A stretch of DNA of 64,000 nt from an uncultured archaeon (GTDB taxonomy: Archaea; Thermoproteota; Nitrososphaeria; Nitrososphaerales; Gagatemarchaeaceae). Of the stretch, positions 7,280 through 46,110 are shown piece after piece. The stretch is taken from NCBI GenBank assembly GCA_963799775.1, contig CAWCYD010000003.1, positions 1,088,001 to 1,152,000 of the forward strand, given 5' to 3'. The notes below the pieces were generated by a model. It did no database searches. It was given only the letters and a program-made list of their open reading frames with translations, and was not told where the DNA came from. A program made the translations under genes and the position numbers. Position 1 is the stretch's first letter. Every line of letters starts with the position of its first letter.

Positions 7280-8227
7280 TGCTCGCCACGGTCGTTTGCA
7301 GCAGCCTGCTGTAAGATGACTCGATCTTGGCCGGCTCCATCGAGACGTCGTCGAGCAGGTCTTCGTCCGCGAGCAGGGACTTCAAGAGCGCCACCTTGGA
7401 GCTCGTGGGGACGGTGACAACCACGGGGACCGTCGTTGGGTCGACCACCTCTGCCGTGTCCGGCTTCGACGAGCTCGACGACCGACTTCTGCATCCCTGC
7501 CTTCGGTTTGAGATAGAGAGTCTCGTCAGCGTTTATCCTCGCCAGGAGGTCAGCGGGAGCCCCCCGGGCGACCAACCTGCCTCGGTGCAACACCACGACG
7601 TCGTCGGCGAAGTCACCCAGCCCGGTGAGATGGGTGGCGATGAGAAACGTGGTGCCCGTTGACGAGAGCTTCCGGACGAGCTCCAGAAAGCTCAGCTGTC
7701 CCCTGAGGTCGATGCTGGCAAGAGGCTCGTCGAAGACGAGGAGCGGTGGGTCGGTAAGCAAGGCCATCGCCAGGGCCAGCCTCTGTCGCATCCCTCCTGA
7801 GAGCGAACGAATCGGCTTCCTTCTCACCTTCCCAAGCCCCACGGCCTCGAGCTTCTCGATGGCCGCCTCCTTCCCGGTTCCTTTGACGGTTGCCATGAGT
7901 CTCGATTCTTGCTCCACGGTGAGGTTCTCGTAAAACGCCGCATATTGCGGGACGTAGCCGATCCTCTCCCTGGCCTTCGAACCCTCCTTCACGACGTCGA
8001 ACCCGTCCACCGTTATCGTCCCCGTGAACTTGTAGACTCCCATGATCGTCTTCACCAAGGTGCTCTTCCCGGCGCCGTTCAGGACCCAGTAGGAGGGTCT
8101 TCCCCCCCTTCCGCACCCTGAATGAGACGCCCTTGAGCATATGATACGCACCGAAGGACTTGGAGACGTCGGAGACCTCGAGCATCTCCCCTGTGCCGCC
8201 TCTCGCCGTGTCCTCGCCCTGGCTCAT
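7266..8227 (-). CDS. ABC transporter ATP-binding protein, NosF/CcmA-like (frameshifts near 8085 and 7450)
   Basis: Walker A G.NGAGKST, signature LSGGMRQR, Walker B LLVFDEP, H-loop IATH; ATG overlaps the upstream stop (TGATG). Confidence 0.85.
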
Positions 8228-12007: not shown

Positions 12008-12041
12008 GCCGGTACAGGCACCTCCTCTGACTGGTGGCAAC

Positions 12042-15967: not shown

Positions 15968-17005
15968 AGGTGTGTCGAATAACTAATCGTTTGGTCAAGG
16001 TTCCCTCGCTCAGGTGGATGAGAGGAGAGGGAATCCTCTCATGATGGCGTGGTCACGAAGAAGAAGCGCAACTGGAAGGAGTACAACGAGTCGCTGGTGA
16101 GGAGGGGAGAGCTCCTCTTCGATACCGATTTTTTATCTGGATGGAGCGCAGAACTAGGGAAGCTCAACGAGGAGAAGGAAGGAGCGAGATATCGCTATCC
16201 AGACTCGTTAATGAGTATGCTCGCAGCCATCCACGTCTACCTGCTCCCGTACCGGGAGCTGGAGGGGTTCCTCAGGATGTTCGCGGGACACGTGGAAGGG
16301 CTCAAGGTCACAGACTACACCACGATGTGGTGGCGGATATCGCGAGTAAAGATAGAGCTGGACCCGAACGTAGACCCAGACGAAGACGTCACCATAGCGG
16401 TTGACTCGACCGGGATCAAGGTCTCCAACCGAGGGGAGTGGATAAGGCAGATGTGGGCGGTGAAGCGAGGCTTCATCAAGGTCCACCTGGCCGTGGACGT
16501 CAAGACCGGGAAGATACTCTCGATGGAGGTGACGAAGGACGACGTGCACGACAGGAGGATGCTCGTCCCTCTGGTGGAGGGAGCGTCGTCGAAGGCGAGC
16601 GTCACGAGGGCGATAGCGGACGGGGCGTATGACTCGAGGGAGATATTCAGCTACCTGGACTCGAAAGGGATAGAGCCCGTGGTCAAGGTGCGAAAGGACG
16701 CCTCTGTGCACTCTCTCGGGTGCATGCCCAGGAAGCTCGTCGTGATGGAGCAGCTGAGGGACAGGGAGCGGTGGAAGAGGAGGCACGGGTACGGTCAGCG
16801 GGCGAGGGTCGAGTCGGCGATATCCTCGTTCAAGCGTACGTTCGGGGAGCACATAACCTCGGTGAAGTGGGAGAACATGGTGAACGAGCTCCTGCTGAAG
16901 GCACAGGTCTACAACCTGTTCGTCGGGATCTCGAACCCCTAGACGAGAGGCGGGCGGAGTAGCGATGCGCGAAAGTAGCCGATCGTGAAGTTATTCGACA
17001 CACCT
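15968..17005 (+). mobile_element. Complete IS5-family (IS903/ISH1-like) insertion sequence
   Basis: Perfect 17-bp terminal inverted repeats AGGTGTGTCGAATAACT (15968-15984 and 16989-17005), flanked by direct repeat GAGCGCAG (15960-15967 and 17006-17013); single transposase ORF inside. Confidence 0.95.
16049..16942 (+). CDS. IS5-family DDE transposase
   Basis: NWKEYNESLVRRG N-terminus; IAVDSTG, ADGAYD and YGQRARVESAISSFKRTFG DDE motifs; uninterrupted. Confidence 0.95.
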   Translation: MVTKKKRNWKEYNESLVRRGELLFDTDFLSGWSAELGKLNEEKEGARYRYPDSLMSMLAAIHVYLLPYRELEGFLRMFAGHVEGLKVTDYTTMWWRISRVKIELDPNVDPDEDVTIAVDSTGIKVSNRGEWIRQMWAVKRGFIKVHLAVDVKTGKILSMEVTKDDVHDRRMLVPLVEGASSKASVTRAIADGAYDSREIFSYLDSKGIEPVVKVRKDASVHSLGCMPRKLVVMEQLRDRERWKRRHGYGQRARVESAISSFKRTFGEHITSVKWENMVNELLLKAQVYNLFVGISNP

Positions 17006-17070: not shown

Positions 17071-19149
17071 GTGGGACGTCAAGGGAAAGGGTTCCGGGGA
17101 ATCTTGAAACTCCAAAAGCGTCGGTCGGCTTTGGCGACCATAGTAATCCTGGCCCTGCTAGTCGTCCTCGGGACAAGCTCGGTGCCAATCTCCCACGGCG
17201 CCCAACCTTCTACGTCGGCAAACTGGACGGGGCATGAGAACAACTTCCCGCTGAACTGGAGCTATGACAATCAGACCACCATAAACAGCAACAACGTCGG
17301 CCAGCTCCAGGTGAAGTGGACGTTCCCCGTCCCCTCCGCCCCGCCGGGACAAATCACGACGGCCGAGGGCGTGATGGTGACTCCCCTCATCTACCAAGGG
17401 ATCGTGTACGGCGTGACCAACTGGAACCGCATCTATGCGCTTAACGCGCAGAATGGGGACGTAATCTGGTATGTAGACCTGCCCGAGATGACCAACTACT
17501 CGCTCTATTTGCAGCCCTCCGTGCCCGGACCGCTCGGCGTCCCCTTAGGACACTATCACGCGATGTTCTTGACGACGCAGCTTTGGGGCGAACCTCTCGT
17601 CTGGGTGGTCTCGAACACCTATCAGGTGTTCGCGCTCAAGGCCTCGACCGGAGACATCGTCCTCAATTTCAACCCGTTCGTCTCAGACCGGCAGGCCGGC
17701 ATAGCAGGGAGCTATGGTCTCTATGACGAGGACACGCCCGACATGCTAATCGACCAACGGCACGCCGTCCTGATATTCTCGCCTTCGGTGACCGAGGGGG
17801 ACAGCGCAGGCAGGGGCTTCATCGAGGGATGGAGCGTCTCGACAACCACGCCCAAGTTCCTCTGGAGGACATACGTCATTCCGCCTCAGGACGGGAGCGA
17901 ACCGCAGTGGTCGCTTGACTCCGTCATGAACATGAGCCACGCATACATCTTCAACGGGACGGGCGCCGTAGACCTGAAAGCACTTCCACCGTCGCAGTTG
18001 AGCTCCATGCTCACCGGTGATTGGGGGAACTTCGGGTTCAACGGCACGAACAGCTTCGCGGGAGATAGCGCTGCTTGGGGAGGAGCGTGGGCGATCGACG
18101 AGGAGACGGGGACGGCCTACGTGGGGACCAACGTGCCGGGGCCGGACTGGAACGCCACTTACCGGCCAGGGCCGAACCTTTGGTCGGCCTCCGTTCTCGC
18201 GCTGAACGTGACGAGCGGCAAGCTGGTGTGGGGATTCCAGGCGGTCCCTCATGCGTTGGGAGACTTTGACTGCTCCTGGAACGTCATGCTCGCGAACCAG
18301 ACCATTAATGGGCGGAGCACTCCGGTGATCTACAAGGGGTGTAAGAACGGGTACATCTTCGCCCTGAACGGGACCACGGGACAGATGCTGTGGTATCTGA
18401 AGCCGCCGTCGATTCGGTATGAAAATGTAATCGCGCTCAACCCGCTCAACGCCACCCAGATGGACAAGTACAACTGGGACGGCTATCCCTCCACGCGCCC
18501 CATAGTCCAGAACCCGGCGGACACGGGCGCGCTCGAATCGGACCTGGCCTTCGACCCCAGCAAGAACCTGGTCTTCGCGGCGACCTACAACGACCCGAAG
18601 AACTTCACCTACAGCGACGTGGGGCCTCCGAAGACGCCCGAGAACATCACGCAATGGGAGTTCACGTGGGGCGTCCAGATCCTCAAAATCATCCCGCTGG
18701 GGTCGCAGAACACCACAATCTACGCGATTGATGCTTCCAACGGCGAGGTCCAATGGGCATTCCCCATACCCAATATCGCGTATCGAGGAGGCCTGACGAT
18801 CAGTGGCGGGGTGGTCTATGCGTCCACCCTGGACGGCACTCTGTGGATGATCAACGAGGGCTCTGGGAAGTTGATTGCGACCAAGTCAATCGGAGGCTCG
18901 CTTCTCATCCAGCCCTCTCTTGGTGAAGACGCGAGCGGCTCGATGACGCTGGTCCTCACGGACATGGGCTCCACTCGCTGGGGTCCGCCATTTCCCGGCT
19001 TCATCCAGGCCCTAGGGCTCCCTTCGCCCACAGGTGGGAGCGGATCGCAGGGGACCGTGATCGAGGCCTCGGCGGTCGCGGTAGTCGCAATCGTGATCGT
19101 GACTGCTGTGGCCCTAGTCAGATATCGAAGAGACTGGAGGCGATATTAA
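17071..19149 (+). CDS. PQQ-dependent-dehydrogenase-like beta-propeller 1, C-terminally membrane-anchored
   Basis: INSNNVGQLQVKWTF, TPLIYQGIVY, YRPGPNLWSASVLALNVTSGKLVWGFQAVPH, KNGYIFALNGTTG; C-terminal TM then RYRR. Confidence 0.88.
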   Translation: MGRQGKGFRGILKLQKRRSALATIVILALLVVLGTSSVPISHGAQPSTSANWTGHENNFPLNWSYDNQTTINSNNVGQLQVKWTFPVPSAPPGQITTAEGVMVTPLIYQGIVYGVTNWNRIYALNAQNGDVIWYVDLPEMTNYSLYLQPSVPGPLGVPLGHYHAMFLTTQLWGEPLVWVVSNTYQVFALKASTGDIVLNFNPFVSDRQAGIAGSYGLYDEDTPDMLIDQRHAVLIFSPSVTEGDSAGRGFIEGWSVSTTTPKFLWRTYVIPPQDGSEPQWSLDSVMNMSHAYIFNGTGAVDLKALPPSQLSSMLTGDWGNFGFNGTNSFAGDSAAWGGAWAIDEETGTAYVGTNVPGPDWNATYRPGPNLWSASVLALNVTSGKLVWGFQAVPHALGDFDCSWNVMLANQTINGRSTPVIYKGCKNGYIFALNGTTGQMLWYLKPPSIRYENVIALNPLNATQMDKYNWDGYPSTRPIVQNPADTGALESDLAFDPSKNLVFAATYNDPKNFTYSDVGPPKTPENITQWEFTWGVQILKIIPLGSQNTTIYAIDASNGEVQWAFPIPNIAYRGGLTISGGVVYASTLDGTLWMINEGSGKLIATKSIGGSLLIQPSLGEDASGSMTLVLTDMGSTRWGPPFPGFIQALGLPSPTGGSGSQGTVIEASAVAVVAIVIVTAVALVRYRRDWRRY

Positions 19150-19247
19150 CGGAACTCCGAGTGTTATATCGATTTGACTGAAAGAAAAAATCGAGCCGAA
19201 TATGAGAATCTTTTATTAGCTCGTCAACTGTCGAGCCGCGCTGAATT

Positions 19248-21183
19248 ATGGGTTTTCAGCGGATTCTCACCAGACCAGTAATCATTGCGGTCATCGTCCT
19301 CCTCTCCTTCGGTGGGTTCGCGAACGTCATCGTGCATGCAGCAACTACCATCTCGCCCTATCCCAACTGGCCGGCCTCGTCGTACAACTTCCAGAACACC
19401 AATAACGATCCGCAGGATGTGATCAACGTCAACAACGTCCAATACCTGGAGCCCAGCTGGATCTACGAGGGTCCCGGTCAACCCATTCAGCATCCCCGGC
19501 GCCCCTCCCGCGCTAGGGGTGGAGGCGCAAGAACTCGTTGTGAACGGGTTTGACTATGTGGCGACTCCTTACAACTCGATAATAGCGCTCAACACGGAGA
19601 CCGGAAACGTCGCTTGGACTTACCCAATCAACATGACTCAGTTTGTCGGCGAAAAATGGTGGTCTGGCGCGTACGTGATAAGCGGGATATCTGACTACAA
19701 CCAGACCATCTACGTCACCGCCTCGAACACAGCCATCTATGCGCTCAACGCACTCAACGGCAGCCTAGACTGGATGATTCCGCCAATCGCGGCGAACATC
19801 CCTGGCAACACCGGGACTTATTATGGTGAAAAGGCCCCGATACTGGTCGGCGACAACCTGATCGTGAGGGCGTCCACTACGGACTACGGAGGAAGGGGCT
19901 TCGTCGCAGCCTACAACATAGACACGAAGAAGCTGGTCTGGCAGTGGTACTCGGTGCCGTCCGCGACCACCCCTGACCCCAACTGGGACTCTCAGGACGT
20001 GGTGACGCTCGCGAACGGGACGACCGTGAACTACGGCCAGGCTCAAGGGAACATCACGCCGTATACGGGGGACTGGGGGACAACCAACCAGTCGGTCTCT
20101 CTCATTGGGGGAGGAGCGGCATGGGGTCTAATCGCCGTCAACAACCAGACAGGCGTAATCTACTTCTCGACAGGCCACCCATCCGATGGGTACGATGCCT
20201 CCCTGCGACCAGGCCCGAACCTGTTCACGGACTGCATCGTGGCGCTCAATTCGACCACCGGAAAGATGATCTGGTACTACCAGATGACCTCGCACGACAT
20301 CACCGAGCACGAAGGCGGGTGGAGCGACAGCCTCTCGACCATCACGCTCTCCAACGGGCACCTCGGTCCAGGTCGTGATCCAGGGGGCCAAGAACAACGA
20401 GGTCTATGTGCTCAACGCCGCGACGGGCAAGCCTGTGTACACCCCGATCATGGTCGGCCCGAAGTCTTCAAACAACTGGAACGACGGCCTAACCGCGACT
20501 GCCAACCTCACGGCGTCTCAAGCCCTGTTTGGGAGTAAGGACATCTGCCCGGGGCCTGACGGTGGGATCGAGATGGCGCCCGCTGTCGACGGCAACATGC
20601 TCTATTTGGTCACCCAGAATGCTTGTGGGGTGATGAGCTACGCGGCCGGTGCTTATCCGTATAAGGGCCAGAACATCAACGGATACATCTACACCGACGA
20701 CCCCGCGGCGCAGGAGAATGGGACCGTCTACGCGATCAACCTCGCCAACGGGCAGCCGGTCTGGGATTACAACCTTCCCAACAGGTACCAAGGTTCGTCT
20801 GCTGTAATCAGCGGCGGGGTGCTCTACATCATCGACAGGGCAGGAATTCTCTACATGTTTGATGCCGCGAACGGGAACCTGCTGAAGAACTTCCAACTCA
20901 ACGGCATCGGGGCTGCTGGAGTCTCAATCGCGACCAACACTGAAGGGACCATGACGCTCTTCGCTCCGGCAGGTGGAGGGCCTTGGGCGGTGCCACTCCG
21001 GGCGTCGTGGTCGCTTACAATATAGTCAACGCCCCCCCGCCCGGCGGCGGGGCCGTCTACGAGCCCATCATAATAGCGCTAGGAGTGCTCGTGGTAGTCC
21101 TCACCATGTACGTGCTGCTAAGCAGGAGGAGAAGGGAAGCTACGCCATCTCGCGCGAAGCCTCCGCGGACTCGCGCCCTCTAA
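19248..21183 (+). CDS. PQQ-dependent-dehydrogenase-like beta-propeller 2 (frameshifts near 19490, 20365, 20980)
   Basis: Consecutive ORF fragments 19248, 19519, 20375 and 20983 carry INVNNV, GRGFVAAYN, LRPGPNLFTDCIVALNSTTGKMIWYYQ, CPGPDGGIE and a C-terminal TM then RRRR. Confidence 0.85.
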
Positions 21184-22642
21184 ACGCGCAGTACGTCGCG
21201 ACCGCGGCGAGCAGGGCACCTACGACGAAGAAAAGGTCGACGGCCGAGATGTACTTTTGAATCGAGACACTTCCGGTCAGCTTCTCTCCGTACAAGTAGA
21301 TTCCAATCAATATGGTTCCTATAGCGAGGCTGATGCTCTGCCCTGTCGACCTCATCATCCCGAGGATGCCGTTTGACATGGCCCTGTCCCCCGGGGGCAC
21401 CGAGGCCAGGTTGGCGTTGGTGTTGCTCGGGGCGAATGTCCCGACCCCGGCCCCCAGCATCGCGAGGAGGAAGGCGATTGTCATCGTCGAAGTCCCTTCA
21501 GTCAGGGTCGACAGAAGTATCAGCGCCGCCGCCGCAATGACACATCCCGCGACTGCCGGGTCCCTGCTCGCCGTCCGGCTCGCTATCCATCCCCCGAACA
21601 CCGCGAAGATGGTCACGGTGAGGGGCTCGACCGTCAGGAGGAGGCCCGCCGTGAGCGGGCTGAATTCCCGAATCAGCTCGAGATAGAACGATAGGAGGAT
21701 CAGCGTTCCGTAGTGCGCCATGTAGATGAAGAGGGCCGAGAAGTTCGTGGAGGCGAACATCGAGTTGGTCCTGAAAGTGTTGAAGTTGATGAGGGGGAAC
21801 GGCGTCCTCGTCTCGCGGATGACGAACAGGACCGTGGAGATTATCCCCACGGCGCCGATTAGGGTGAGCGGGATGGAGAGCTCGTAGTTGAGGTACGAGT
21901 AAAAGTGGAGGCTGGTCCCGGGAAACGGGATGTAGATGTCCCGGATGTACGTGTTGATAGCCGATAGGCCGTTGGCAGCCGCAGTCAGGGCGACCAGGGC
22001 CGAGCCGAGTGCCCCCGCGAAGAATATTGCGCCCAGCCAGTCGGTCTTGATAGCGAGGTTCTTGGGGCTCTCCCTGAGGACGAGAAGGGAGATAGGAATA
22101 GCCACGGCCGCGATGAGGGCGTTCGCATAGAAGACGTACCTCCAGCCAACCGAGGCGGTGATGGTCACGATGCCCCCCGTCAGGGCCACGCCGACGGTCA
22201 TCCCGATGTAGATTACCGAGATGTGGGGCCCTAGCGCAAAGCCCCGGAGCTTGGGCTCGAAGGCGTCGACGATGAGGGCCCGCCCGTTGGAGAGGATGAA
22301 GGCCCCGCCCAGCGACTGGATGACCCTGTAGATCAGAAGGTCGTAGATTGTCAGCGAGTTGCCCGAGAGGTAGGCCCCTATCGAGAAGAGGACGAGCCCA
22401 AGGATGAAGTAGCGCTTCCTCCCGTGCCTGTCGGAGAACCTCCCGAAGATCGGCATGAAGGCTGCGGTGATGATGAGCGACTCGAGCGGTACCCAGAGGA
22501 CTACCCCGATGGGGGCCTGGAGGCTTATCGCGATTGTCGGAAGGATGAGCGACATTATCCCGGTGTCGAGGGGAGGGACGAAGTTGCCAAGGTTCACAGC
22601 TGCGAGCGAGAACCACTTGCGCCGTTGCGCCAGTGACTGCAA
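21140..22642 (-). CDS. MFS transporter, DHA2 (EmrB/QacA)-like
   Basis: About 14 TMs; GRFSDRHGRKR motif A, GWRYVFYAN, DWLG, PLINF. Confidence 0.9.
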   Translation of the reverse strand: MQSLAQRRKWFSLAAVNLGNFVPPLDTGIMSLILPTIAISLQAPIGVVLWVPLESLIITAAFMPIFGRFSDRHGRKRYFILGLVLFSIGAYLSGNSLTIYDLLIYRVIQSLGGAFILSNGRALIVDAFEPKLRGFALGPHISVIYIGMTVGVALTGGIVTITASVGWRYVFYANALIAAVAIPISLLVLRESPKNLAIKTDWLGAIFFAGALGSALVALTAAANGLSAINTYIRDIYIPFPGTSLHFYSYLNYELSIPLTLIGAVGIISTVLFVIRETRTPFPLINFNTFRTNSMFASTNFSALFIYMAHYGTLILLSFYLELIREFSPLTAGLLLTVEPLTVTIFAVFGGWIASRTASRDPAVAGCVIAAAALILLSTLTEGTSTMTIAFLLAMLGAGVGTFAPSNTNANLASVPPGDRAMSNGILGMMRSTGQSISLAIGTILIGIYLYGEKLTGSVSIQKYISAVDLFFVVGALLAAVATYCAFRGRESAEASREMA

Positions 22643-22748: not shown

Positions 22749-24691
22749 ATGGCGATAAGACCTGTTGAAGGACCGCGCCCCTGTCGTGAAGAAGTCCTGA
22801 CCGGGCTGCTCCTCTTCCTGCTCGTCTCCATCGCTATTCCGAGGGGAGCTTCTGCGTCGTCCGGCACCTCTAACGCCTCAGGAGCGGCGTGGACGACCAT
22901 GAACGCGAACGGGAACCACACGAACTACGTGCCCCAGGACCAGGTCTCCGCCTCCAACGTCCAGAACCTTCAGGTGGCCTGGACCTTTCCTTTCCCCGCG
23001 GCCTACAACGTCCCTGGACTGGCTGTGACCGGCGAGGGGTCCATCTCCCCTCCGCTGGTCGTGAACGGGACCGTGTTCGTCCTGACCAACTTCCTCACCG
23101 TCTACGCGATAAACGGAGAGACGGGCGCCGTGGTGTGGTCGTATGTCGCGCAGCTGAACACGACAGGCCTGCCTTTGGGGCCGTTGGTCGGGCACATGCA
23201 CGGGATGAATTACTACCGGGGCGACCTGTGGGTGAATCTTCCTGATTGCTCGGTCTTGGCGCTGAACGCGCTCAGCGGGGCCGTCGTCATGAGGATTAGA
23301 GACATCTGTGCGGGCATCCCCGGGAACGCAGGCTTCTACGACTCCTCAGGTGTCCCGCCCGTCTTCGACGGCGACACGATGATCTGGACGAGCTCGGTCT
23401 CCGAAGGGACGGACGTCGGCAGGGGGTTCGTCGCCGCCTACGACATCACGGATGGGCAGCTGCTCTGGAGATGGTATGTCGCTCCGCCCGCCGGCGGCGA
23501 CCCCAACTGGGATGCTGACTCCTGCTCCGTCAACGCGACTTCCAGCTGCCACGGGAACGTGAGCCCCTACGTCGGAGACTGGGGTGGGATGGGCATGACG
23601 ACCACAATCAACGGGACGACGAGCCACCCTCTGGCGGGAGCAGGCCCGAGCTTCGGGTGCACCGGTCGTAGATACGAGACGCGGCGTGGTCTTCGTGTCC
23701 ACGTCGCAGCCCTCTCCGGATTGGAACGGGACTTACAGGCCCGGGCCTGATCTCTATGCAGACTCGATAATAGCCCTCAACGCGACGAACGGGCACATGC
23801 TCTGGTTCTACCAGACCACGCCCCACGACCTCTTCGACTTTGATTGCGGCTGGAACACCGTCCTCGGGAACGTCACCGAGGGAGGGACGGTGCACGAGGC
23901 GGTCTTCAAAGCATGCAAGAACGGCTACGTCTACGCGATAGACGCCGTCGCGGGGACGCTGCTCTGGAAGTTCGACCCTCCTTCCGTTACGAGGAACCTG
24001 ACTGGTAACGCGAACTATGTGGCGACCGGGAACTACTCGGCCACGCTCCCCTGGATAAACTACCCTTCGACACAAGAATTCGAGCAATGCCCTGGGGAGA
24101 ACGGGGCCATCGAGTCGGACATCGCCTACGCCTACTCGACGGTCTACGTCGCCACATACAACTTCTGCACCTTTGGGCAGGTCGCTCCCGTCTCGACCGA
24201 GGGGGCGCTTGTCTGGGGGGTGAAGGACCTCACGCCGGATTGGCAACATGCGAACACGACGATATACGCGATAAACACGTCGACGGGGAACGTCACCTGG
24301 AAGTACTTCATGCCCACGATCCCGTATCGCGGGTGGCTGACGGCAAGCAACGGCCTGATCTTCGCCGGGAGTTTGGACGGGAGCATCCACATCCTGGACG
24401 CGAAGAGCGGGAAGCAGGTGTACGACCTCTATCTGGGGCCGCCGCTCTACGAGAGCCCGACATTGGGCACGGCTCCGGACGGCCAGGTGTATCTCTACGA
24501 GCTCGTGGGGGCGCCCGGATACGAGGCGTTCCCGGGAGGCGTTCCGGGAGACGTAATCGCCCTCGCGCTCCCGCCCCAAGCGTCGACGTCCTGGGAGACC
24601 TTCCTCCCTGTTGCTGCCGTGGGTGGCCCTTGCGGCGATCGTCACGGTCCTGCTGATCGAAAACAGGTCGTTGAGGAGGCGGAACCGATGA
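22749..24691 (+). CDS. PQQ-dependent-dehydrogenase-like beta-propeller 3 (frameshifts near 23660 and 24622)
   Basis: VSASNVQNLQVAWTF, GRGFVAAYD, YRPGPDLYADSIIALNATNG..WFYQTTPHDLFDFD, CPGENGAIES; the corrected C-terminus gives TM then RRRNR-stop at 24691. Confidence 0.85.
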
Positions 24692-24702: not shown

Positions 24703-25509
24703 CTATCCGGAGAGCGAGTCCGAGAGAGGCCTGTCCTGGATGACGTAGGCGACATAGATGGCGTCGTGCAGGCTCCAGTAGATGTCTGCCATCGACTCCG
24801 CGGCCTCGATCGCCTTCTGCTGCATCTCTCTAGTCCTACAATACCTGAGCACTATTCGGAGAGTGGTCTCGTTCGCTTCGTCGAGCTGGCCCAGCCTCGA
24901 CATGAAGAACCTGTAGCCCTCAGGCTCGATCCAAGGATAGTGCCTCTTGAAGGCCTCGATCCTCTTGACGAGCTCGCCCTTCGCGAAGTACTCGATGAGT
25001 GATGCTGCGACCCCCTCGGTCCAGTCCGCCCTCCTCGCAAAATTGACGTAGCCGTTGACCGCGAACCTCACCCCGGGCAGGCACCTCGCCCTGAGGATGT
25101 CGTCCCTCGCGACCCCTGCGGACTCGGCGAAGCCTATCCAGCCCTCCACGTCTCCTATGCTCCCGCCCAGTCCCTCCCTCTTCAGTATCCTCCCGATCCA
25201 GAGCCTGCGCACCTCGGTCTCCGGGCAGTTGGAGAGGATGGCGGCGTCCTTCAACGGGATGTTCTTCTGGAGGTAGAACCTGTTGATTATCCAGGCCCTG
25301 AGCTGCTTCGGGGTCAGCTTCCCAGAGTAGAGCATCACCATCAGGGGGTGCTTGTCTTGCATCTTGTCCTTGAGCTTGGTCTCGAGGAGTCTCAAGAACT
25401 CCTTCCTCTCGAGGGCAGCCCCTGCACCTGACTGCGGCGAGAGGGTTCCCCTCGGTGGGACGGGTCTGCGACGGCCGGCGACGCTCCGCTGCTTCGAAGA
25501 CTTCCTCAT
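24703..25509 (-). CDS. pqqC: PqqC-like protein (pyrroloquinoline-quinone synthase family) with substituted catalytic residues
   Basis: WIINRFYLQKNIPLKDAAILSNCP, LPGVRFAV..YVNFARR, HYPWI and SRL are typical of PqqC; several catalytic His/Tyr/Lys positions are replaced. Confidence 0.85.
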   Translation of the reverse strand: MRKSSKQRSVAGRRRPVPPRGTLSPQSGAGAALERKEFLRLLETKLKDKMQDKHPLMVMLYSGKLTPKQLRAWIINRFYLQKNIPLKDAAILSNCPETEVRRLWIGRILKREGLGGSIGDVEGWIGFAESAGVARDDILRARCLPGVRFAVNGYVNFARRADWTEGVAASLIEYFAKGELVKRIEAFKRHYPWIEPEGYRFFMSRLGQLDEANETTLRIVLRYCRTREMQQKAIEAAESMADIYWSLHDAIYVAYVIQDRPLSDSLSG

Positions 25510-26282
25510 TCCTTGAACCCCCTTGTCTTGACCTCATAGATGCACGCCGAGGAGCCGCCTCCCTCCTTCTGGTCGAGCCTCTGTATGCTAGTCCTTCCGC
25601 TGTGCTTGCCTTTGATTGCGCCCGTGAGCATCCCCCTCGTGAAGGAGCAGACGAGGCTGCCGTACTCCTTGTTCTCGAAACAGCCCGAGCAGTGGATCAT
25701 AGAGTCCCCGCGCTTCCTCGTCTCAAGAGTGAGATGGGCCATGTTCTGGTCTTCGAGGTAGCCTACCAAAGCCTTCAACCCGCTCTTCATCGTCGAGAAC
25801 TTCACGAAAGGGGCGATGAGCTCATGGCCGACGCGCTCGCCAAAGCCCTCGAAGACCGCGTCGTTCATCGAACCAGAGTCTGCGGTGAGCCTGAAGAGAT
25901 GGTAGAGGAATATCTCGATCTCATCCGCTGGCTTTCTTGTCGGCTCTAGGTGCCAGCTCACCAGTAGCTTCTCGAAGAGTTCGTCCAGCCTTCCCAGCGC
26001 GCCTTCTTGCTCGTCTCGTCGTCTCGCGAGGACGAGGCCGCCATGCTTGAGGGCGTATGTCTTGCTGTAGACGCCTCCCCTTATGCTCTTGATGTCTGCG
26101 ATCTCAATCATGTCCCTCCTCAGGAGAGTCTTGGTGTGGTAGGAGACGGTCGCCTTCGAGACTCGTAGCTCCTTCGCAATCTCAGTCGCCGTCGAAGGGC
26201 CCTTTGAGAGGACGGTCAGGATCGCGTCCCTTACCCAGCCCTTTAAGGGGCTGGAGCCGCGGATTTCTAGCAGCTGGCTCAT
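25506..26282 (-). CDS. ArsR-type winged-HTH plus V4R-domain transcriptional regulator
   Basis: RDAILTVLSKGPSTATEIAKELRVSKATVSYH; C-terminal V4R motif HCSGCFE...VCSFTRGMLTG...ACIYEV; stop overlaps the pqqC start (ATGA). Start could extend to 26327. Confidence 0.85.
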   Translation of the reverse strand: MSQLLEIRGSSPLKGWVRDAILTVLSKGPSTATEIAKELRVSKATVSYHTKTLLRRDMIEIADIKSIRGGVYSKTYALKHGGLVLARRRDEQEGALGRLDELFEKLLVSWHLEPTRKPADEIEIFLYHLFRLTADSGSMNDAVFEGFGERVGHELIAPFVKFSTMKSGLKALVGYLEDQNMAHLTLETRKRGDSMIHCSGCFENKEYGSLVCSFTRGMLTGAIKGKHSGRTSIQRLDQKEGGGSSACIYEVKTRGFKE

Positions 26283-26346
26283 TCCAGTTCGGTTAATTCT
26301 AACTGATTCCTCTATAAAGGCTCGCAATTACCTATGACCAATCGCA

Positions 26347-26886
26347 ATGCCTGGAGAACGCGCGAAAGGGAAGAATCACGTCGACGAGACGCTAAGGATA
26401 GGCGAGGCAGGACCCAAGGGGAAGGGCGTCTTCGCTACGCGGAGGATAGAGCCCTTGGACCTTGTCTGGGACTACGCGGGGGAGGAGAGATGGATCAAGG
26501 ACATCCCGAAGAAGCTCTGGCGATACTGCTTCCAGGTCGACTACGACAGATACGTGATGCCGGAGAAGGGCTCGCCAGGCTGGTTCATGAACCATTCATG
26601 CAAGCCCAACTGCGTGATCATTGGCAGGACGAGGATAGTCGCTCTCGGGCGCATAGAGAAGGGGGACGAGGTGACCTTCGACTACTCGACCAACGTCGGC
26701 TGGGACGGGTTCTCGATGAGATGCCATTGCGGCACGAAGGAATGCCGAGGCACGGTCAAGAGCTACAAGTTCCTCCCAGACGAGCTCAAGATGAGGTATG
26801 GCGCGTGCGTCTCCTCGTTCCTCTTGCGCGTTACGTGGCATCGCGGAACCGGTGTAGCCGTTCCTCCCGACGGCGCAGCCAAATGA
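26347..26886 (+). CDS. SET-domain protein-lysine methyltransferase with post-SET Zn motif
   Basis: KGKGVFATRRI, FMNHSCKPNC, GDEVTFDY, CHCGTKECRG. Confidence 0.92.
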   Translation: MPGERAKGKNHVDETLRIGEAGPKGKGVFATRRIEPLDLVWDYAGEERWIKDIPKKLWRYCFQVDYDRYVMPEKGSPGWFMNHSCKPNCVIIGRTRIVALGRIEKGDEVTFDYSTNVGWDGFSMRCHCGTKECRGTVKSYKFLPDELKMRYGACVSSFLLRVTWHRGTGVAVPPDGAAK

Positions 26887-27613
26887 GGATCGGCATTGTC
26901 GCCATGAAGGCCACTACAGCAATCACAGCCGAGGCACCGCCGTAGAAGTAGACCCAGTTCTTGAAAGGGCTCTCTGAGTAGCGCTGCGAAAGCGGAGGGC
27001 CCGATGTTTGCCACTGTGGGAAGGTCGTCGCGCCCCCGCTGTACTGGGTGGAGAATGACTTGAAGTTCCATGACTCTTCGGATATCAACCATTTTCCGTC
27101 GGAGTGGACGTAGCGGTACTGGGCGTTTACGTTCCCATTGAAGTACCCCAGGTCGGCGTTCTCTCCGCTCAGGAAAATGCTGCCGTTCACCATGGCGACG
27201 TTGGGGCTGCCTGAAGGGAGGCTCGAAAGGCCGCCGCTCGATATCATCATCCTGGTCGTAGACGAGAGGAAAGCGACCAGCAGATTCCGCACGCTGTCAA
27301 TCCCGTTGTAAGACCCCGCGAAAGAAAGCGTGTTGCCAGACCACACGACCGAGGCGTTCTGGGAGTAGTCCGAAATCGCCTCGCCAGGGTTGAGGTTTTC
27401 TAGGTTTTGGAAATGACTCTGGACGATCGACTGGTCGAACGAGCCTGAGGCTGCAGTAGTGGTCGCCGCTGGCTGGCTGATACTTGGAGGCACCAGCTTG
27501 AACAGGGCGAAACCAAAGATGACCAGGACCATCAGACCCACGAGGAGCCAGAAATGAGGACGAGAGGTGTCCAACTCCTTGAAGACGTGGTGTCTGGAGG
27601 CGGCGGTCTTCAA
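26831..27613 (-). CDS. NTF2/SnoaL-like domain protein with N- and C-terminal TM helices
   Basis: HFQNLENLNPGEAISDYSQNASVVWSG...YNGIDSVR...GKWLISEESW; paralogue of 1..706. Confidence 0.7.
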   Translation of the reverse strand: MKTAASRHHVFKELDTSRPHFWLLVGLMVLVIFGFALFKLVPPSISQPAATTTAASGSFDQSIVQSHFQNLENLNPGEAISDYSQNASVVWSGNTLSFAGSYNGIDSVRNLLVAFLSSTTRMMISSGGLSSLPSGSPNVAMVNGSIFLSGENADLGYFNGNVNAQYRYVHSDGKWLISEESWNFKSFSTQYSGGATTFPQWQTSGPPLSQRYSESPFKNWVYFYGGASAVIAVVAFMATMPILIWLRRREERLHRFRDAT

Positions 27614-27622
27614 TAAGCGTCG

Positions 27623-28978
27623 CTACCTCCACTTCTTCCTGATCGCGAAGGCCATGAACGCTAGGCCAGCCAAGAGAAGGCAGAGGGAGATGAACCCGGA
27701 ACGCGCTCACGAACCCGAGGAACCCCACCATGAACCCGATGGAAATTGCGGCGATGCCGTACCCAGTGTGCTCCATCGCGTGATTGGTTCCCATTATGGC
27801 GGCGCGACTGGATTGGTTGGTCGCTTCGGCAAGGATCATGAGCTGGCTTATTCTGATCATCGCGATAAAGAACCCGTGGGCGAACGATGCTATGATGAAG
27901 ACAGGGAGGGTGGAATAGATGAAGACGGCCCCGATTGACAACGAACTGCCTACCAAACCGGCGACGAGGTACGGCATTCGCCTCGTGCCCCTGTCGAGCC
28001 GATGCCCAAGGGGTATCATCACGCTGACCGTGGTGAGCGCCATTATGGTCGCAAAGTATCCGTAAAGAGCGCCATAGAGCGGCACGGTAGCAGTCAGGGA
28101 ATGCGCGTAGAGCGGCACGAACTGGAAGAAACCTGAGAACCCGATTCCCCCGTCTATCGTCGTGAGCAACGCGACGCTGACGATCGGAGTCTTGAAGGCC
28201 TTGATGTAGTCACTCCAAGAGGCGCTGTGGGCATGCTCCTCCATGCTTATCGGAGCGTCGAGGCCGAGCGGATGTGGTTCCACGTTCACCTCTTCGCTGC
28301 CGTGCATCGGCTTCATCCTGTAGGACGCTCCCTTCACCTCAGGCATGAGAAAGAAAGCGATCACAGCAGACAAGGCCATGAGGTAGAGCGCGTCTTGGAA
28401 GACGGCGATGCTGCTCCCCGTGTTATCGCGCCAATCGCCGTTCCCAGGCCCGGGCCGAACGCAAAGCCGGCGAACTCCACACCATCGACCAAGCCGTATG
28501 CCTTGCCCATCTCCCTGTATTGTTCCGCGAGATCTGCAGAATACGAGAGGGTGCTCGCAGTGTATGTCCCGTGAGCTATGCCGAGCAGGCACAGAGAGAG
28601 AGTCATGGCCGCCAAGAATTCGGGGAGCGCGGTGAACGAGTTCGAGACGATGAGCGAGCCGAGGGCGACCGCCCCCATAGAGGAGCCGATGATCGTCAGC
28701 TTCTGGCGGCCGTACTTGTCGCAGAGATGACCCATCGGGACTGATATCAAACCCGAGGTGACGAGATAGATCCCGGAGATGCCACCCACGAAGGCGTACC
28801 CCACGGTCCCCAGCTGGAAGGTAATCGTCAGCTTGTCTGAGAGGAAGACGAGAACGATGATGAAGGACGAATATTCGGCGACATGGGTAAGAAAGCCTAC
28901 AGCCCCGACTCCCGCGAAGAGCCTGACGAAGTGCGAGACTCCGCTTCGAGGGCGCTTTTGTCTCAGTCTTGTTACCAT
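27623..28978 (-). CDS. MFS transporter (frameshifts near 28420 and 27700)
   Basis: GHLCDKYGRQK motif A and second-half GHRLDRGTRR; about 12 TMs across the fragments. Confidence 0.8.
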
Positions 28979-29254: not shown

Positions 29255-30184
29255 TCAGGGTTCGGGCCCTTCGTGCGTGTACCCTGGCCCGGGTTCAAGA
29301 GGCATGTGCCGCGACCTCCGAGTCATGTCGTGGGGAACCCGATACCTGAGACTTGCGTGTATGGCCCTGACCAGGATGTATAAGCCGAATACTTCCGCAG
29401 TTATGAAGAAACTGACGGGGTACGGGGTGTAGTAGGCGATGAAGAGCCCCGACCAGGTCGCTGCGACCGCTATCGCAACCGAGATGATGATGGCACGCTG
29501 CGGGCGCCTCGCGAGATACACCGAGGTTGCTGCAGGTGTGACCATCAAGGAGAAGATAAGAAGCACGCCAGTGACCTGGACCGAGAAGGACACCGACACC
29601 GCGACGATCAGCATGAACATGGTGCCTAGGAAGAGCATCGGCATGCCCTTTGCTTCAGCGACATCCTCGTCCAACGACGCGAAGAGCAGCGGCCGATACA
29701 GGAACCCCAGCAAGATCAAGATCACTCCGCACCCTTCAAGGCTCAGATAGACGGCGCTCGTGCTTATTCCAAGTATCTCACCGAAGAGAATCGAGTACGC
29801 CTCGGTCGAATAGCCGGAATACAGACTGAGAAACAGGAGTCCGAGACCGAGCGAGAATGCAAGCACTATGCCGATTTGGGTGTCTCGGTTCGTGGCGCGG
29901 CGGCCGAGCGCCGCTATCGCTAGGCCACCCGCAATTGAACCGCTCAGGAGGCCGATGATCGGGGCGACGTTGATTAGGATTGATGCCGCGGCACCCGCGA
30001 ACCCAATTTCCGAGAACGCGTGGGCGGTGAATGCGGATCGACGGAGCACCACAAAATAGCCCGTGACGCCGGCCAGGACCGCGATGATCGTGCCCGCTTC
30101 GAAGGCGTGCTGCATGAACTGGTAGTGCCACATCTGCTCGACGTCGTAGAAGATGTTGGGACTGATGTTGAAACTGCCGCTCAC
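29255..30184 (-). CDS. Zn/Mn ABC transporter permease (ZnuB-like)
   Basis: GYFVVLRRSAFTAHAFSE, LFGEILGI, SLDEDVAEAKG, VTGVLLIFSLMVTPAA. Confidence 0.92.
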   Translation of the reverse strand: MSGSFNISPNIFYDVEQMWHYQFMQHAFEAGTIIAVLAGVTGYFVVLRRSAFTAHAFSEIGFAGAAASILINVAPIIGLLSGSIAGGLAIAALGRRATNRDTQIGIVLAFSLGLGLLFLSLYSGYSTEAYSILFGEILGISTSAVYLSLEGCGVILILLGFLYRPLLFASLDEDVAEAKGMPMLFLGTMFMLIVAVSVSFSVQVTGVLLIFSLMVTPAATSVYLARRPQRAIIISVAIAVAATWSGLFIAYYTPYPVSFFITAEVFGLYILVRAIHASLRYRVPHDMTRRSRHMPLEPGPGYTHEGPEP

Positions 30185-30185
30185 T

Positions 30186-31028
30186 CTAGGCCGCCCCAGG
30201 AGCGCCGTGATGCTCTTCCACGCCGATTATAGCGACGTTGCCGTGGGGGTCGCGAAGAACCTCCACCTGGACGCCGTAGAGCGCGGTAAGGCTCTCGGAT
30301 GTCAGGACCTCTTCAGGCCTCCCCGTGGCGACCTTGCCGTTCGCGATATACATTACCTTGTCGAGGTGAGGCAGAAGAGGGTTGATGTTGTGAGCGATGA
30401 GCAACGCGGTCACCCCCCGGTTCCGGACGATGTCGTTCACCAGGTGAAGGAGCTCCGTCTCACGACGGAGGTCGAGATTAGAGAGCGGCTCATCCAGCAG
30501 GAGGACATCAGGGTTGCTCACAAGGGCTTCAGCAAGAAAGATCCGCTGGAGCTCTCCCCCAGACATGACTCCGAGCGGCTTGTGCGCGAGCTCCGTCGCG
30601 CCGACGGCCTTCAATGCATCGAGCGCAGCGTCTCGGTCCTTATGGTCGATTGGATTGAAACCCCACTTCTTCCCTGACAAGCCCAGCCGGACCAATTCGA
30701 GGGACTCGATGTTGGTCTCGTTGTCGATCGTATGCCTTTGAGGAACGTAGCCTATTCGCGGGCTACCACGGGTAGGATTCCCTCCGAAGAGCTTGAGGCT
30801 GCCGGCCAAGGCGGGCTGTAGCCCCAAAAGCAGGCGAAACAGCGTGGTCTTTCCAGCGCCGTTCGGGCCTATTATGGCCACGAACTCGCCGCGACCGAAC
30901 TCGAAGTTCGCGTTTTGCCAGACGACCTTATCCCTGTAACCGGCCGCAAGGCGCTCAGCCGTGATGAGCCCTATTTGCACTCCCACGGCGAGTGTCTTCG
31001 AGGCCCTATTCATTTGTTTAGCCGCCAA
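30186..31028 (-). CDS. Zn/Mn ABC transporter ATPase (ZnuC-like)
   Basis: GPNGAGKTT, MSGGELQR, LLLDEP, IAHNI, LYGVQV. Confidence 0.92.
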   Translation of the reverse strand: MAAKQMNRASKTLAVGVQIGLITAERLAAGYRDKVVWQNANFEFGRGEFVAIIGPNGAGKTTLFRLLLGLQPALAGSLKLFGGNPTRGSPRIGYVPQRHTIDNETNIESLELVRLGLSGKKWGFNPIDHKDRDAALDALKAVGATELAHKPLGVMSGGELQRIFLAEALVSNPDVLLLDEPLSNLDLRRETELLHLVNDIVRNRGVTALLIAHNINPLLPHLDKVMYIANGKVATGRPEEVLTSESLTALYGVQVEVLRDPHGNVAIIGVEEHHGAPGAA

Positions 31029-32100
31029 GGGCTTGCGAGTTCAGGCAGTTATGCAAGGCAGAAACCTCGCCTTGCATCCATGCCTGGAATGTGAGGCCCG
31101 GAGGCTGTAGCGTCTCCGATACGAAGGTGATAGGAATCTCGTACTGAGTGGCCTCCACCTTCAGCTGTTGGGTGATGGGCGTGAGGGTCTGGACATTGTA
31201 GACCATGCAGGCGATCGTTTGGTTCCCTTGGGTCAGCTGGTTCTCGAACGTCGCGACGTCCTGGGGAGATGGGTCGTTGCCTTCAGCTATGGCCTTCATG
31301 AACGGTTGCGGGGTGATGATGTTCAGACCGGTCGCGTTTGCCAAGAAGATGACTATGCTCTCTGTGGCTTCTATGGTCGTTCCATTCTTGGCCGTGCCAT
31401 CCCCATAGGGAGTACCACCCCACTGTGCCTTGATCTGCTCCTCCTGCGCCATGTAGTCATGATAGAGCGAGTAGTTCAGGCTGGCGTAGTTCGACTGGAA
31501 ATAGGCGTCATCGGTGGGATTGGAATCGATTTTCACGAGCGTTTTGTACATTGCGTGGACGGTATCATTTACGTAGAAGGGGCTGTACCAAAGGTGAGGA
31601 TTTATCGTCGAGGTCACCCCGTTTATCGTCTGCTGCTGGTCGGGCGTCTTGATGCCCACGACTTGTTGGGCGTTTAGTACGATCTGTCCAGAAGTGTTGC
31701 TAGCGTTGATGAGCAGCTGCGCCCACGTGTCGTAATTCATACCATTGATGATGACAAGCTGAGCGTTGGCTATGGCCTTCGCGTCCGCTGGATTGCTTTG
31801 GTACTCGTGGGGATCCGTGTTAGGGTCTGAGACTACGCTGGTGACATTAGCGTGAACACCCGCCAGCTGGCTTACCAAGTCGCCCCAAAAGTTCTCAGCC
31901 GCAACTATGTTGATTACGGTCTTGGAGCCTGTGCTTGCCGAACTAGACCCACTGCCAACGGTTACTGTCGATGTCGCTGTCGACGTCACGGTCGAGCCCC
32001 TGGTCAAGTAAAGGCCTGCCCCTACGGCGATTACCAGGATTACTAAGACTCCTACGGCCGGTAAAAGAAGCTTGTTTCCCGCTGGTTTGGATGTTTCCAT
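31018..32100 (-). CDS. Zn/Mn ABC substrate-binding protein (ZnuA/TroA-like)
   Basis: VAAENFWG, DPHEYQ, NGMNYD, NPHLWY; N-terminal anchor. Confidence 0.92.
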   Translation of the reverse strand: METSKPAGNKLLLPAVGVLVILVIAVGAGLYLTRGSTVTSTATSTVTVGSGSSSASTGSKTVINIVAAENFWGDLVSQLAGVHANVTSVVSDPNTDPHEYQSNPADAKAIANAQLVIINGMNYDTWAQLLINASNTSGQIVLNAQQVVGIKTPDQQQTINGVTSTINPHLWYSPFYVNDTVHAMYKTLVKIDSNPTDDAYFQSNYASLNYSLYHDYMAQEEQIKAQWGGTPYGDGTAKNGTTIEATESIVIFLANATGLNIITPQPFMKAIAEGNDPSPQDVATFENQLTQGNQTIACMVYNVQTLTPITQQLKVEATQYEIPITFVSETLQPPGLTFQAWMQGEVSALHNCLNSQALGG

Positions 32101-32330
32101 CTTCGTTTCGCTAGGCCCTTGTATGGCGAGCTGGGTTATTAAGTATTACCAGTTTCTAAATAACATCAATATGTGCTTCAGATAATAGTTCTGGTATTAC
32201 TAATCATGAATCTCTCGGAGCTATTAATCGTGTTGCGCACAATTGCCGATTCGGAGGGGTACCTCAAACGGAGTAACGCTAGGCGGATCGGTTGCAAGAT
32301 CCGCAGTCGTGGCACCCCGAGGAAAAGGCT

Positions 32331-32441
32331 TCAGCCCGTCATGAGATAGAACGCGACTGCCATCACCACGACCGCCACCCCCACGATTATCGCCGCCCAC
32401 ATGTGGTAGCGACTGGTCGTCTCGCTCGGCACGTTTGCCAT
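32331..32441 (-). CDS. 36-aa single-TM micro-protein
   Basis: MANVPSETTSRYHMWAAIIVGVAVVVMAVAFYLMTG, with an AT-rich TATA-like region directly upstream (32461-32493). Confidence 0.5.
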   Translation of the reverse strand: MANVPSETTSRYHMWAAIIVGVAVVVMAVAFYLMTG

Positions 32442-32554
32442 GAGACCCAAAGGGGCTCGTGATATTAATAAATATTTGGCCAAAAGTATTAACATTGGTT
32501 GCCTGACGAACGACTTTCTAACAAGGCAAAGCGCGCGAGGCTCGCGTTGTCGGT

Positions 32555-32938
32555 CTAGATTGGTATCAGCTTCGTGCTCTTCATCTTGTCCTCCGCCTGG
32601 AAGGACTTGGTCATGGAATTTACCTTCTTGGCGTCCCCCTGGACGACGAAGAGCTCGATGCACATGGAAGTCTTCGTCTTGTTATGGACGTGAGTCGTGA
32701 TTATGTCCTCGTACTGGTGCTTAAGTTTGGTCACGGGGGCTTCCTGCTCCTCATCATGAGTCACGATCAGCAGTCCATTCATGTCCCCTGTAGCAGTGGC
32801 CCTCTCTCTCGAGTCCTCGAGCAGCATACGGATGGCGGCTCGGACGAGCTCCGACCTTCCGGTGAACCCTGAATGCTTCTGGACCTCGTCCATCTCCTTC
32901 AGCATTGTCTCAGGGAACGATAGGCTGACAACGGTCAT
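32555..32938 (-). CDS. NikR/CopG-family ribbon-helix-helix metal-responsive regulator
   Basis: VVSLSFP..L.EMD...GFTGRSELVRAAIR and ACT-type C-terminus KHQYED..THVH...CIELFVVQGD. Confidence 0.88.
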   Translation of the reverse strand: MTVVSLSFPETMLKEMDEVQKHSGFTGRSELVRAAIRMLLEDSRERATATGDMNGLLIVTHDEEQEAPVTKLKHQYEDIITTHVHNKTKTSMCIELFVVQGDAKKVNSMTKSFQAEDKMKSTKLIPI

Positions 32939-46106: not shown

Positions 46107-46110
46107 GAGT

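Follow-up and report, generated by a model that had tools for sequence, protein, structure and literature searches.

The genome of an uncultured archaeon of the order Nitrososphaerales (family Gagatemarchaeaceae, assembly GCA_963799775.1) contains a pair of overlapping genes in which a relative of an enzyme of cofactor biosynthesis follows directly upon a regulator. Both lie in the stretch of 64,000 nucleotides of contig CAWCYD010000003.1 that was analysed here and is referred to as the window. The second gene of the pair encodes a homologue of PqqC, the pyrroloquinoline quinone (PQQ) synthase, and the first encodes a protein with an ArsR-type winged helix-turn-helix (HTH). Three genes for PQQ-type propeller dehydrogenases and one for a transporter of the major facilitator superfamily (MFS) are found alongside (Table 1). 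An earlier note, made by eye from the sequence, had proposed that the PqqC homologue has exchanged the residues that do the chemistry and kept those that grip the carboxylates of the ligand. Here we investigate this PqqC-like protein, its relatives and its surroundings. The proposal is supported by alignment and by the pattern in 77 aligned sequences: in a protein derived from PqqC the proton-relay and oxygen-pocket residues have been replaced, and the carboxylate-binding set of arginines and lysine has been retained.

The PqqC-like protein consists of a basic, low-confidence N-terminal tail of about 32 aa followed by a seven-helix core of the PqqC type. Its assignment as a PqqC homologue is borne out by the Pfam model PF03070 (TENA/THI-4/PqqC), with 116.9 bits against a cut-off of 22, and by a phmmer search of the PDB, in which the top matches are the Klebsiella PqqC structures 1otv and 1otw (E = 1.7e-60). 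Identity to bacterial PqqC is 43–47%. The NCBIfam equivalog model for PqqC, TIGR02111, also matches it (224.6 bits, E = 1.2e-66) at a score under the cut-off of 240; PqqC from a Ralstonia locus (L071), used as a control, reaches 339 bits. With the CADD model TIGR04305 the score is 60.4 bits, under the cut-off of 200. The altered-pocket protein is a novel variant within an already known family.

Active-site residues were mapped by HMMER alignment to Klebsiella PqqC (1otv/1otw), and the Klebsiella number is given first. In the window protein the altered positions are Y23 (M50), H24 (Q51), Y53 (L80), D83 (K110), H84 (R111), T146 (I172), H154 (L180), Y175 (F201), D186 (A212) and K214 (M240). Those kept are R50 (R77), K60 (K87), R80 (R107), Y128 (Y154), R157 (R183) and R179 (R205). 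Every substitution and retention that had been listed by eye is reproduced in this way. H84 is reportedly the key acid/base of PqqC, and the titles of PDB entries call variants at Y175, H154 and R179 'active site mutants'. The passages drawn on here from a structural study (Puehringer 2008, PMC2294125) describe a positively charged cavity in which H154, R157 and residues 170–187 move onto PQQ and Y175 swings 6.9 Å into the cavity centre upon PQQ binding. They also describe PqqC as product-inhibited and assayable at single turnover only.

Are these substitutions peculiar to one sequence, or are they shared by its relatives? Of 5903 candidates in a homologue search, 3989 proteins reached E ≤ 1e-10, and the best 120 of these were compared. 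The window protein and the first 76 clusters, which are 50–90% identical to it, make up a variant clade of 77 rows, and the remaining 44 are canonical PqqC. The five named clusters of the clade are all from Nitrososphaeria: four are 'Nitrososphaerales archaeon' proteins annotated 'hypothetical protein', and the fifth, P0048, is from a 'Candidatus Geothermarchaeales archaeon' and is annotated PqqC. Across the clade H84 is R and H154 is L without exception (77/77 each), and Y175 is F in 75 rows and I in 2. Y53 has become L (69 rows), F (5), M (2) or I (1), and D83 has become R (43), K (33) or G (1). Position 24 is never His (Q in 37 rows, I in 16, V in 12, L in 7, a gap in 5), and position 214 is never Lys (M in 55, L in 12, A in 4, Y in 4, others in the rest). 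R50, R80, R157 and R179 are each unchanged in 77/77, and K60 in 76/77. Further differences are fixed or nearly so: D85E (E112) in 75/77, G93D (D120) in 77/77, L222H (H248) in 72/76, and A140G and L211A. The substitutions listed by eye therefore recur at H84, H154, Y175, Y53, H24 and K214. They do not at three other positions, since Y23 is still Y in 53 of the 77 rows, D186 is still D in 35, and the change at T146 is not clade-wide. Judged from these alignments, the most economical reading is that a cationic clamp for a PQQ-like tricarboxylate has been retained, even reinforced, while oxidase chemistry has been given up.

The gene is not in decay. Its frame is intact in the window and in four related archaeal loci (L001–L004), and pairwise ratios of nonsynonymous to synonymous substitution rates (dN/dS) over 231 codons are 0.050–0.083 in all ten pairs of these five sequences; it is under strong purifying selection. 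The earlier note had asked whether homologues show random decay, and what they share is one pattern. Many genes of the window are broken in frame, which could be taken to favour a decaying pseudogene or a chance open reading frame (ORF). With intact frames, these dN/dS values, 76 conserved clusters and a confident structure model (see below), such an explanation has next to no chance of being right, and we rejected it.

The position of the clade was estimated with a quick maximum-likelihood tree. Its 56 rows comprise the window protein, P0230, 26 of the 76 archaeal clusters, 22 canonical rows, 3 odd rows and 4 CADD-like rows; one row meant as outgroup grouped with the canonical ones. The tree places the variant clade in a single group of 27 rows with a support of 95 by the approximate likelihood ratio test (SH-aLRT). 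A group of P0229 and P0254 is its sister (SH-aLRT 96). Both are nested within the canonical PqqC radiation, apart from the CADD-like outgroup rows. In an all-against-library search with 1160 relatives at E ≤ 1e-3, the R84/L154 pair was found among the best 150 only in P0230 (235 aa) and in the fragment P0240.

The claim that the window holds no pqqA, pqqB, pqqD or pqqE held up in each search made for them. The Pfam scan took in 137 ORFs out of the 151 with 115 aa or more, the 14 left out being alternative-frame ORFs in the 19.5–28.6 kb region, and no PqqB-type, PqqD, PqqE or radical-SAM domain was found in those 137. PqqB, PqqD and PqqE from three bacterial operons gave no tblastn match in the window or in L001–L004, whereas pqqC from the same operons matched in all five. 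A PqqA core motif was present in none of these five archaeal sequences and in 62 of 76 bacterial loci. The bacterial loci have pqqB, C, D and E side by side; in all five archaeal sequences the PqqC-like gene is solitary.

These results bear on the possibility that the gene encodes a working PQQ synthase whose active site has diverged, the remaining pqq genes being elsewhere or replaced by non-homologous archaeal enzymes. The identity of 43–47% to bacterial PqqC, the common fold, a TIGR02111 score just below the equivalog cut-off and the name PqqC carried by P0048 at source would all suit a synthase, as would the many PQQ-type dehydrogenases of these archaea, whose genes lie together (by synteny and in the part of Sheridan 2023, PMC10640624, drawn on here). 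Set against this, the 44 canonical rows show no variation at Y23, H24, R50, Y53, K60, R80, Y128, T146, R157, Y175, R179 and K214, and H24, Y53, Y175 and K214 among them are lost here; position 84 is H in 41 of the canonical rows and R throughout the clade. With the solitary gene, no PqqA motif nearby and four of five named clade members called hypothetical at NCBI, we consider a working synthase very unlikely.

An AlphaFold model made from the clade alignment has a mean predicted local distance difference test (pLDDT) score of 91.5, with confidence low only over the N-terminal 30 residues or so. It has the seven-helix PqqC fold with a closable cavity. The best Foldseek matches are the closed, PQQ-bound PqqC structures 3hlx and 1otw (TM scores 0.81/0.85, root mean square deviation 1.9–2.0 Å), and apo PqqC, 1otv, fits less well (2.8 Å). 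CADD, UndA, FlcD, BesC and TenA are also among the structural neighbours. Compared with PqqC of Klebsiella pneumoniae (1otv, 1otw, 3hlx), then, the fold and R50, K60, R80, R157 and R179 are shared, and the model resembles the closed state with PQQ bound. The differences are the replacement of H24, Y53, H84, H154, Y175 and K214 by Q, L, R, L, F and M and of D83 by K or R in the clade, the basic N-terminal tail, the score below the equivalog cut-off, and a gene that stands alone, translationally coupled to a regulator.

The regulator was listed as an ORF at 25506–26327 (-) with an upstream TTG start. Translation most probably begins at the ATG at 26282, because the TTTATA box falls between the two and homologues begin at the ATG. 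The earlier description of an ArsR-HTH and V4R protein stands for the HTH, which exceeds the Pfam cut-offs (HTH_20, 33.7 bits against 27; HTH_5, 32.0 bits against 22). The second domain is probably V4R-like, at the level of the fold only, because the Pfam V4R model gave no match, including with the C-terminal 161 aa at E ≤ 10, and Foldseek finds structures of this kind. In the AlphaFold model (pLDDT 83) a winged helix is followed by a helix/sheet domain whose neighbours are H-NOX, the phenol-sensing domain of PoxR, the V4R protein MJ1460 (2oso, 2osd) and Bet3, at E values of 2e-4 to 1e-3; TMt, the TM score normalised to target length, is 0.5–0.6 for MJ1460, PoxR and H-NOX. A search with the regulator returned 108 proteins including the window's own (P0121), mostly full-length homologues at 48–69% identity, with a few fragments and one distant match, P0227, at 34%. 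The named homologues are from Thaumarchaeota, Nitrososphaerales or Nitrososphaerota. Four cysteines are invariant in an alignment of 44 homologues: C198-x-x-C201, C212 and C247.

The closest known system for this protein is MsvR, a redox-sensitive, autoregulating protein. The MsvR model NF053755 (HTH plus V4R) aligns end to end, residues 28–266 to model positions 10–236 of 236. The two share the two-domain layout, a putative V4R/H-NOX-like fold, a conserved Cys cluster, a divergent neighbouring gene and an element between TATA box and start codon. The window regulator differs in being thaumarchaeal, not from a methanogen, in having a PqqC-like protein as its downstream partner, and in scoring 63 bits against a cut-off of 220, so that it is no equivalog.

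The overlap between the two genes, in which the ATG of the PqqC-like gene (25507–25509) runs into the TGA of the regulator (25506–25508), is as first described. The junction reads ATGA in the window, TTGA in L002, CTGA in L003 and GTGA in L004, or NTGA; L001 is frame-broken there. The basic, low-complexity tail between the coupled start and the PqqC core is open in all loci, though poorly conserved, and clade members of 238 aa are without it. In L003 (9989–10166) the coupled start is CTG, an unusual start codon, with no ATG, GTG or TTG before codon 57 of the core, which suggests either that translation restarts there at a near-cognate codon or that the assembly is in error. In L002 (9160–9896), from a palsa-labelled metagenome-assembled genome (MAG), the regulator orthologue is split over three frames, with N bases in one stretch near the promoter; the PqqC-like gene downstream of the broken regulator is intact.

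A candidate operator of 19 nt lies between the TATA box and the regulator start (Table 1). It is nearly invariant across the window and L001–L004, and presumably resembles the MsvR boxes. With up to three mismatches allowed, it has a single copy in the window, at its own promoter; there is one copy in each of L001–L004 and none in the 76 bacterial loci. Its position would suit autorepression. Inverted repeats in 26230–26420 amount to two short pairs, both within coding sequence.

A scan of genome contigs gave 80 loci, 76 of them bacterial and four archaeal. The archaeal ones, L001–L004, all come from MAGs, two of a 'Thaumarchaeota archaeon' and two of an 'uncultured archaeon'. The gene order SET/regulator/PqqC-like/propB/MFS/propA/third propeller is kept in L002–L004, and in L001 up to the contig end. 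The SET-domain gene is divergent from the regulator and has a 64 bp control region in common with it; it may be a second target of the regulator. On the other side, the PQQ-type propeller gene reported beside the PqqC-like gene is propB, which is convergent (tail-to-tail) with it, with 11 bp between the end of propB and the PqqC-like stop. PF01011 matches the three propellers with 84.8, 96 and 143.9 bits (cut-off 26.7), and TIGR03075 is under its cut-off. The catalytic D-x-D region is kept as D-F-D in the third, orf692, where it aligns with that of the quinoprotein ethanol dehydrogenase 6zcv, and propB also carries D-F-D. All three bear signal/anchor sequences, and the PQQ-type dehydrogenases appear to be extracellular.

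Table 1. Features of the regulator/PqqC-like gene pair and its surroundings (positions in the window)
Feature	Positions	Strand	Basis
PqqC-like protein, 268 aa	24703..25509	-	ORF; Pfam, NCBIfam and PDB homology
Regulator, 258 aa, from its most likely start; ArsR-type winged HTH (about residues 20–80) and V4R/H-NOX-like C-terminal domain	25506..26282	-	Pfam, NCBIfam, Foldseek
Stop/start overlap ATGA, translational coupling	25506..25509	-	Regulator TGA and PqqC-like ATG
19-nt element CAGTTAGAATTAACCGAAC, candidate operator	26287..26305	-	Between TATA box and start codon
TTTATA box of the regulator/PqqC-like operon	26313..26318	-	31–36 nt upstream of regulator ATG
SET-domain gene, divergent from regulator	26347..26886	+	Conserved neighbour in L001–L004, 70–79% identity
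propB, PQQ-type eight-bladed propeller dehydrogenase with signal/anchor sequences	22749..24691	+	PF01011
DHA2-family (EmrB-like) MFS transporter between propellers	21140..22642	-	Conserved in L002–L004, 71–75% identity
propA, PQQ-type propeller, at least three frames in the window, boundaries approximate	19206..21183	+	PF01011
Third PQQ-type propeller (orf692), 692 aa, intact	17071..19149	+	PF01011, D-F-D motif

In the window propB has two frame breaks (near 23656 and 24627), and it is in a single frame in L002–L004. Many conserved genes of the window are interrupted in this way, among them propA, propB, a multicopper oxidase, an ABC ATPase, an MFS gene, TruD and a FadB-like gene; the stretches split over two or three frames are 19206–21183, 22749–24691, 27600–28978, 44752–46141, 60720–62673, 12004–13869 and 7276–8485. 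Because housekeeping genes are broken too and the propB orthologues are intact, these breaks have the appearance of assembly indels, not of decaying genes, and we rejected them as biology of the propeller genes. Just upstream of the first propeller gene is a gene for a transposase of the DDE type found in insertion sequences (16049–16942, +). Three NHL-repeat beta-propeller proteins, an ABC-2 transporter and a multicopper oxidase are encoded at 4598–6346, 8227–9774, 10226–12052 and 12004–13869 (-), and a ZnuABC-type metal uptake operon with a regulator bearing a NikR C-domain lies a few kb from the cluster (29255–32938, -).

How might the gene pair work? The explanation that we favour, to which we give a little less than an even chance, is that the PqqC-like protein is a non-oxidase that binds PQQ, or a polycarboxylate resembling it, and is co-produced with a sensor regulator under autoregulation. 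The PqqC-derived protein would no longer run the cofactorless eight-electron oxidation of the precursor AHQQ, and its strongly cationic pocket would still close around PQQ or a PQQ-like aromatic polycarboxylate. The NTGA overlap, the one promoter and the conserved operator-like element would provide for its synthesis in a fixed ratio with the ArsR-HTH/V4R regulator. It might hold cytoplasmic PQQ as a buffer, hand it on or report its availability, and the regulator, through its own V4R/Cys domain, would set the level of the pair and possibly also that of the divergent SET gene. Next to the pair lie the genes for the three PQQ-type dehydrogenases, which are secreted or anchored, and for the DHA2-type MFS transporter. 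A comparable arrangement is CopY/CopZ, in which a repressor gene is followed by a ligand-carrier gene in one operon and the carrier may supply the effector. The analogy is one of working only: the proteins are unrelated in sequence and fold, the ligand here would be an organic cofactor, and the interaction is putative.

Several points weigh against this explanation. That oxidase activity has been lost, that the ligand is PQQ and that the two proteins communicate is what we infer from the locus and its relatives. The absence of other pqq genes holds for the 64 kb window and the four related loci, and the rest of the genome may hold pqqABDE. Among the 44 canonical rows, three have Q at position 84. 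H154 is H in 35, M in 7, Q in 1 and I in 1, and because it varies among canonical PqqC its loss weighs less than was first thought; all three residues named as key to the chemistry, H84, H154 and Y175, are replaced clade-wide as proposed. R at position 84, with the new polar residues D120, H248 and E112, could form another catalytic set. The regulator need not use the PqqC-like protein, because a V4R domain is a ligand sensor itself, and a cytoplasmic binder of PQQ needs an uptake or synthesis route, because the PQQ-dependent enzymes appear to be extracellular. No copy of the 19-nt element was found near the propeller or MFS genes in the 64 kb, with up to three mismatches allowed. The control of the propeller genes that had been proposed for the regulator is thus unsupported, because the operator-like element is only at the regulator's own promoter. 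Finally, identical longest-contig sizes, for example 75352, 67395 and 31796, were seen in 10 PqqC-like and 10 regulator clusters, a heuristic sign of linkage and not proof of it; all of these coincidences are within P0001–P0028, and there are none among the 48 more distant members P0029–P0076. The linkage to the regulator does recur, in all four related loci by synteny and with NTGA in L002–L004. On this evidence, coupling would belong to the closest subclade.

The same evidence bears on a stronger proposal, the full model of the earlier note, that the two proteins are a true co-sensor pair in which the PqqC-like protein docks on the V4R regulator, or passes PQQ to it, and so switches the PQQ-dehydrogenase cluster by PQQ supply. 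The conserved NTGA coupling, the coinciding contig sizes and the conserved synteny with the propellers are in its favour. Prediction of a complex between the regulator and residues 30–268 of the PqqC-like protein, made from alignments, gave a score of 0.00 in two runs, which counts neither for nor against binding. We regard the proposal as improbable, given that the operator-like element is confined to the pair's own promoter, that the 48 distant clade members are without sign of the regulator, and that no fused regulator-PqqC form was found among the best 150 of the 1160 relatives, P0230 and P0240 being without any extra domain.

Alternatively, has the pocket been retuned for other chemistry? 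The PqqC fold might serve another anionic, possibly aromatic, substrate, with the V4R regulator sensing substrate or product and the nearby propellers only loosely related, perhaps by taking part in one pathway for aromatic or sugar acids from soil. Clade-fixed new polar residues (R111, E112, D120 and H248) are what an enzyme might show. Moreover, the heme-oxygenase-like fold hosts many chemistries, as in CADD, UndA, FlcD, BesC and TenA, and V4R-type domains such as that of PoxR bind phenolics, according to the titles of structure entries. The sister clade, with its different pocket (R50W, R179L), suggests that the ligand has drifted in this branch. All five basic residues that bind the PQQ carboxylates are kept, however, and the replacements are mostly of the aliphatic or aromatic, non-catalytic types L, F, M and I. 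No metal-ligand set is apparent, the ligands not having been checked singly, and the position beside PQQ enzymes is conserved. CADD and the heme-oxygenase-like di-metal oxidases (1rcw, 8va9) do share the PF03070 superfamily and the fold (TMt 0.87–0.89), but identity to CADD is 20%, the CADD model scores far under its cut-off as given above, and the window protein lies in the PqqC radiation, away from the CADD-like rows. A retuned enzyme is a real contender, though an unlikely one.

The sister group itself (P0229, P0379–P0387 and P0254) has its pocket remodelled in another way. Besides R50W and R179L, K214 is lost, H24 is lost in 10 of the 11 rows (P0381 retains it), and H84 is kept or has become Y. 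One of its clusters bears a Tara source tag, and the 'PQQ synthase' of heterotrophic Thaumarchaeota from the sea could be a member of this group.

Genome papers on these archaea have taken the lone pqqC-type gene at face value. In the parts drawn on here, one states that an ancestor of mesophilic Thaumarchaeota 'gained the PQQ synthase, pqqC' (Sheridan 2023, PMC10640624), and this and a second paper (PMC7300363) treat the gene as the source of PQQ, a working 'PQQ synthase'. The parts consulted of PMC13374868 and of the preprint 10.1101/2019.12.22.886556 contain no discussion of PQQ synthesis. We found no paper that notes the loss of residues from an archaeal PqqC active site, the supplementary pqq tables of the genome papers being outside the scope of the search. 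In the portions of the literature consulted, the term 'PqqC-like' denotes CADD-type proteins.

If the binder that we favour is what the gene encodes, the archaea of the clade may handle or sense PQQ, perhaps without making it. A fuller version, which is possible though rather doubtful, is that the protein is a non-catalytic PQQ receptor and that these archaea, which abound in soil, are PQQ auxotrophs and bind, buffer or sense bacterial PQQ with a V4R regulator made alongside; the marine archaea with the differently remodelled sister form are perhaps auxotrophs as well. The published PQQ self-sufficiency of non-ammonia-oxidising Thaumarchaeota would then rest on a protein that is no synthase. 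Were the gene unable to make PQQ, the energy metabolism of these archaea would rely on PQQ from neighbouring organisms, and the approach to their ecology and cultivation would therefore change, for example by the supply of PQQ and lanthanides. Auxotrophy would amount to a hidden dependency of archaea on bacteria for a cofactor, and a receptor would be the first use of the PQQ-biosynthesis fold in sensing or handling the cofactor. For the PqqC family, the variant clade is a natural multi-site variant in which the proton relay and the oxygen pocket have been removed and the ligand clamp kept, so that what the lost residues do, and how PqqC holds its product so tightly, can be tested directly.

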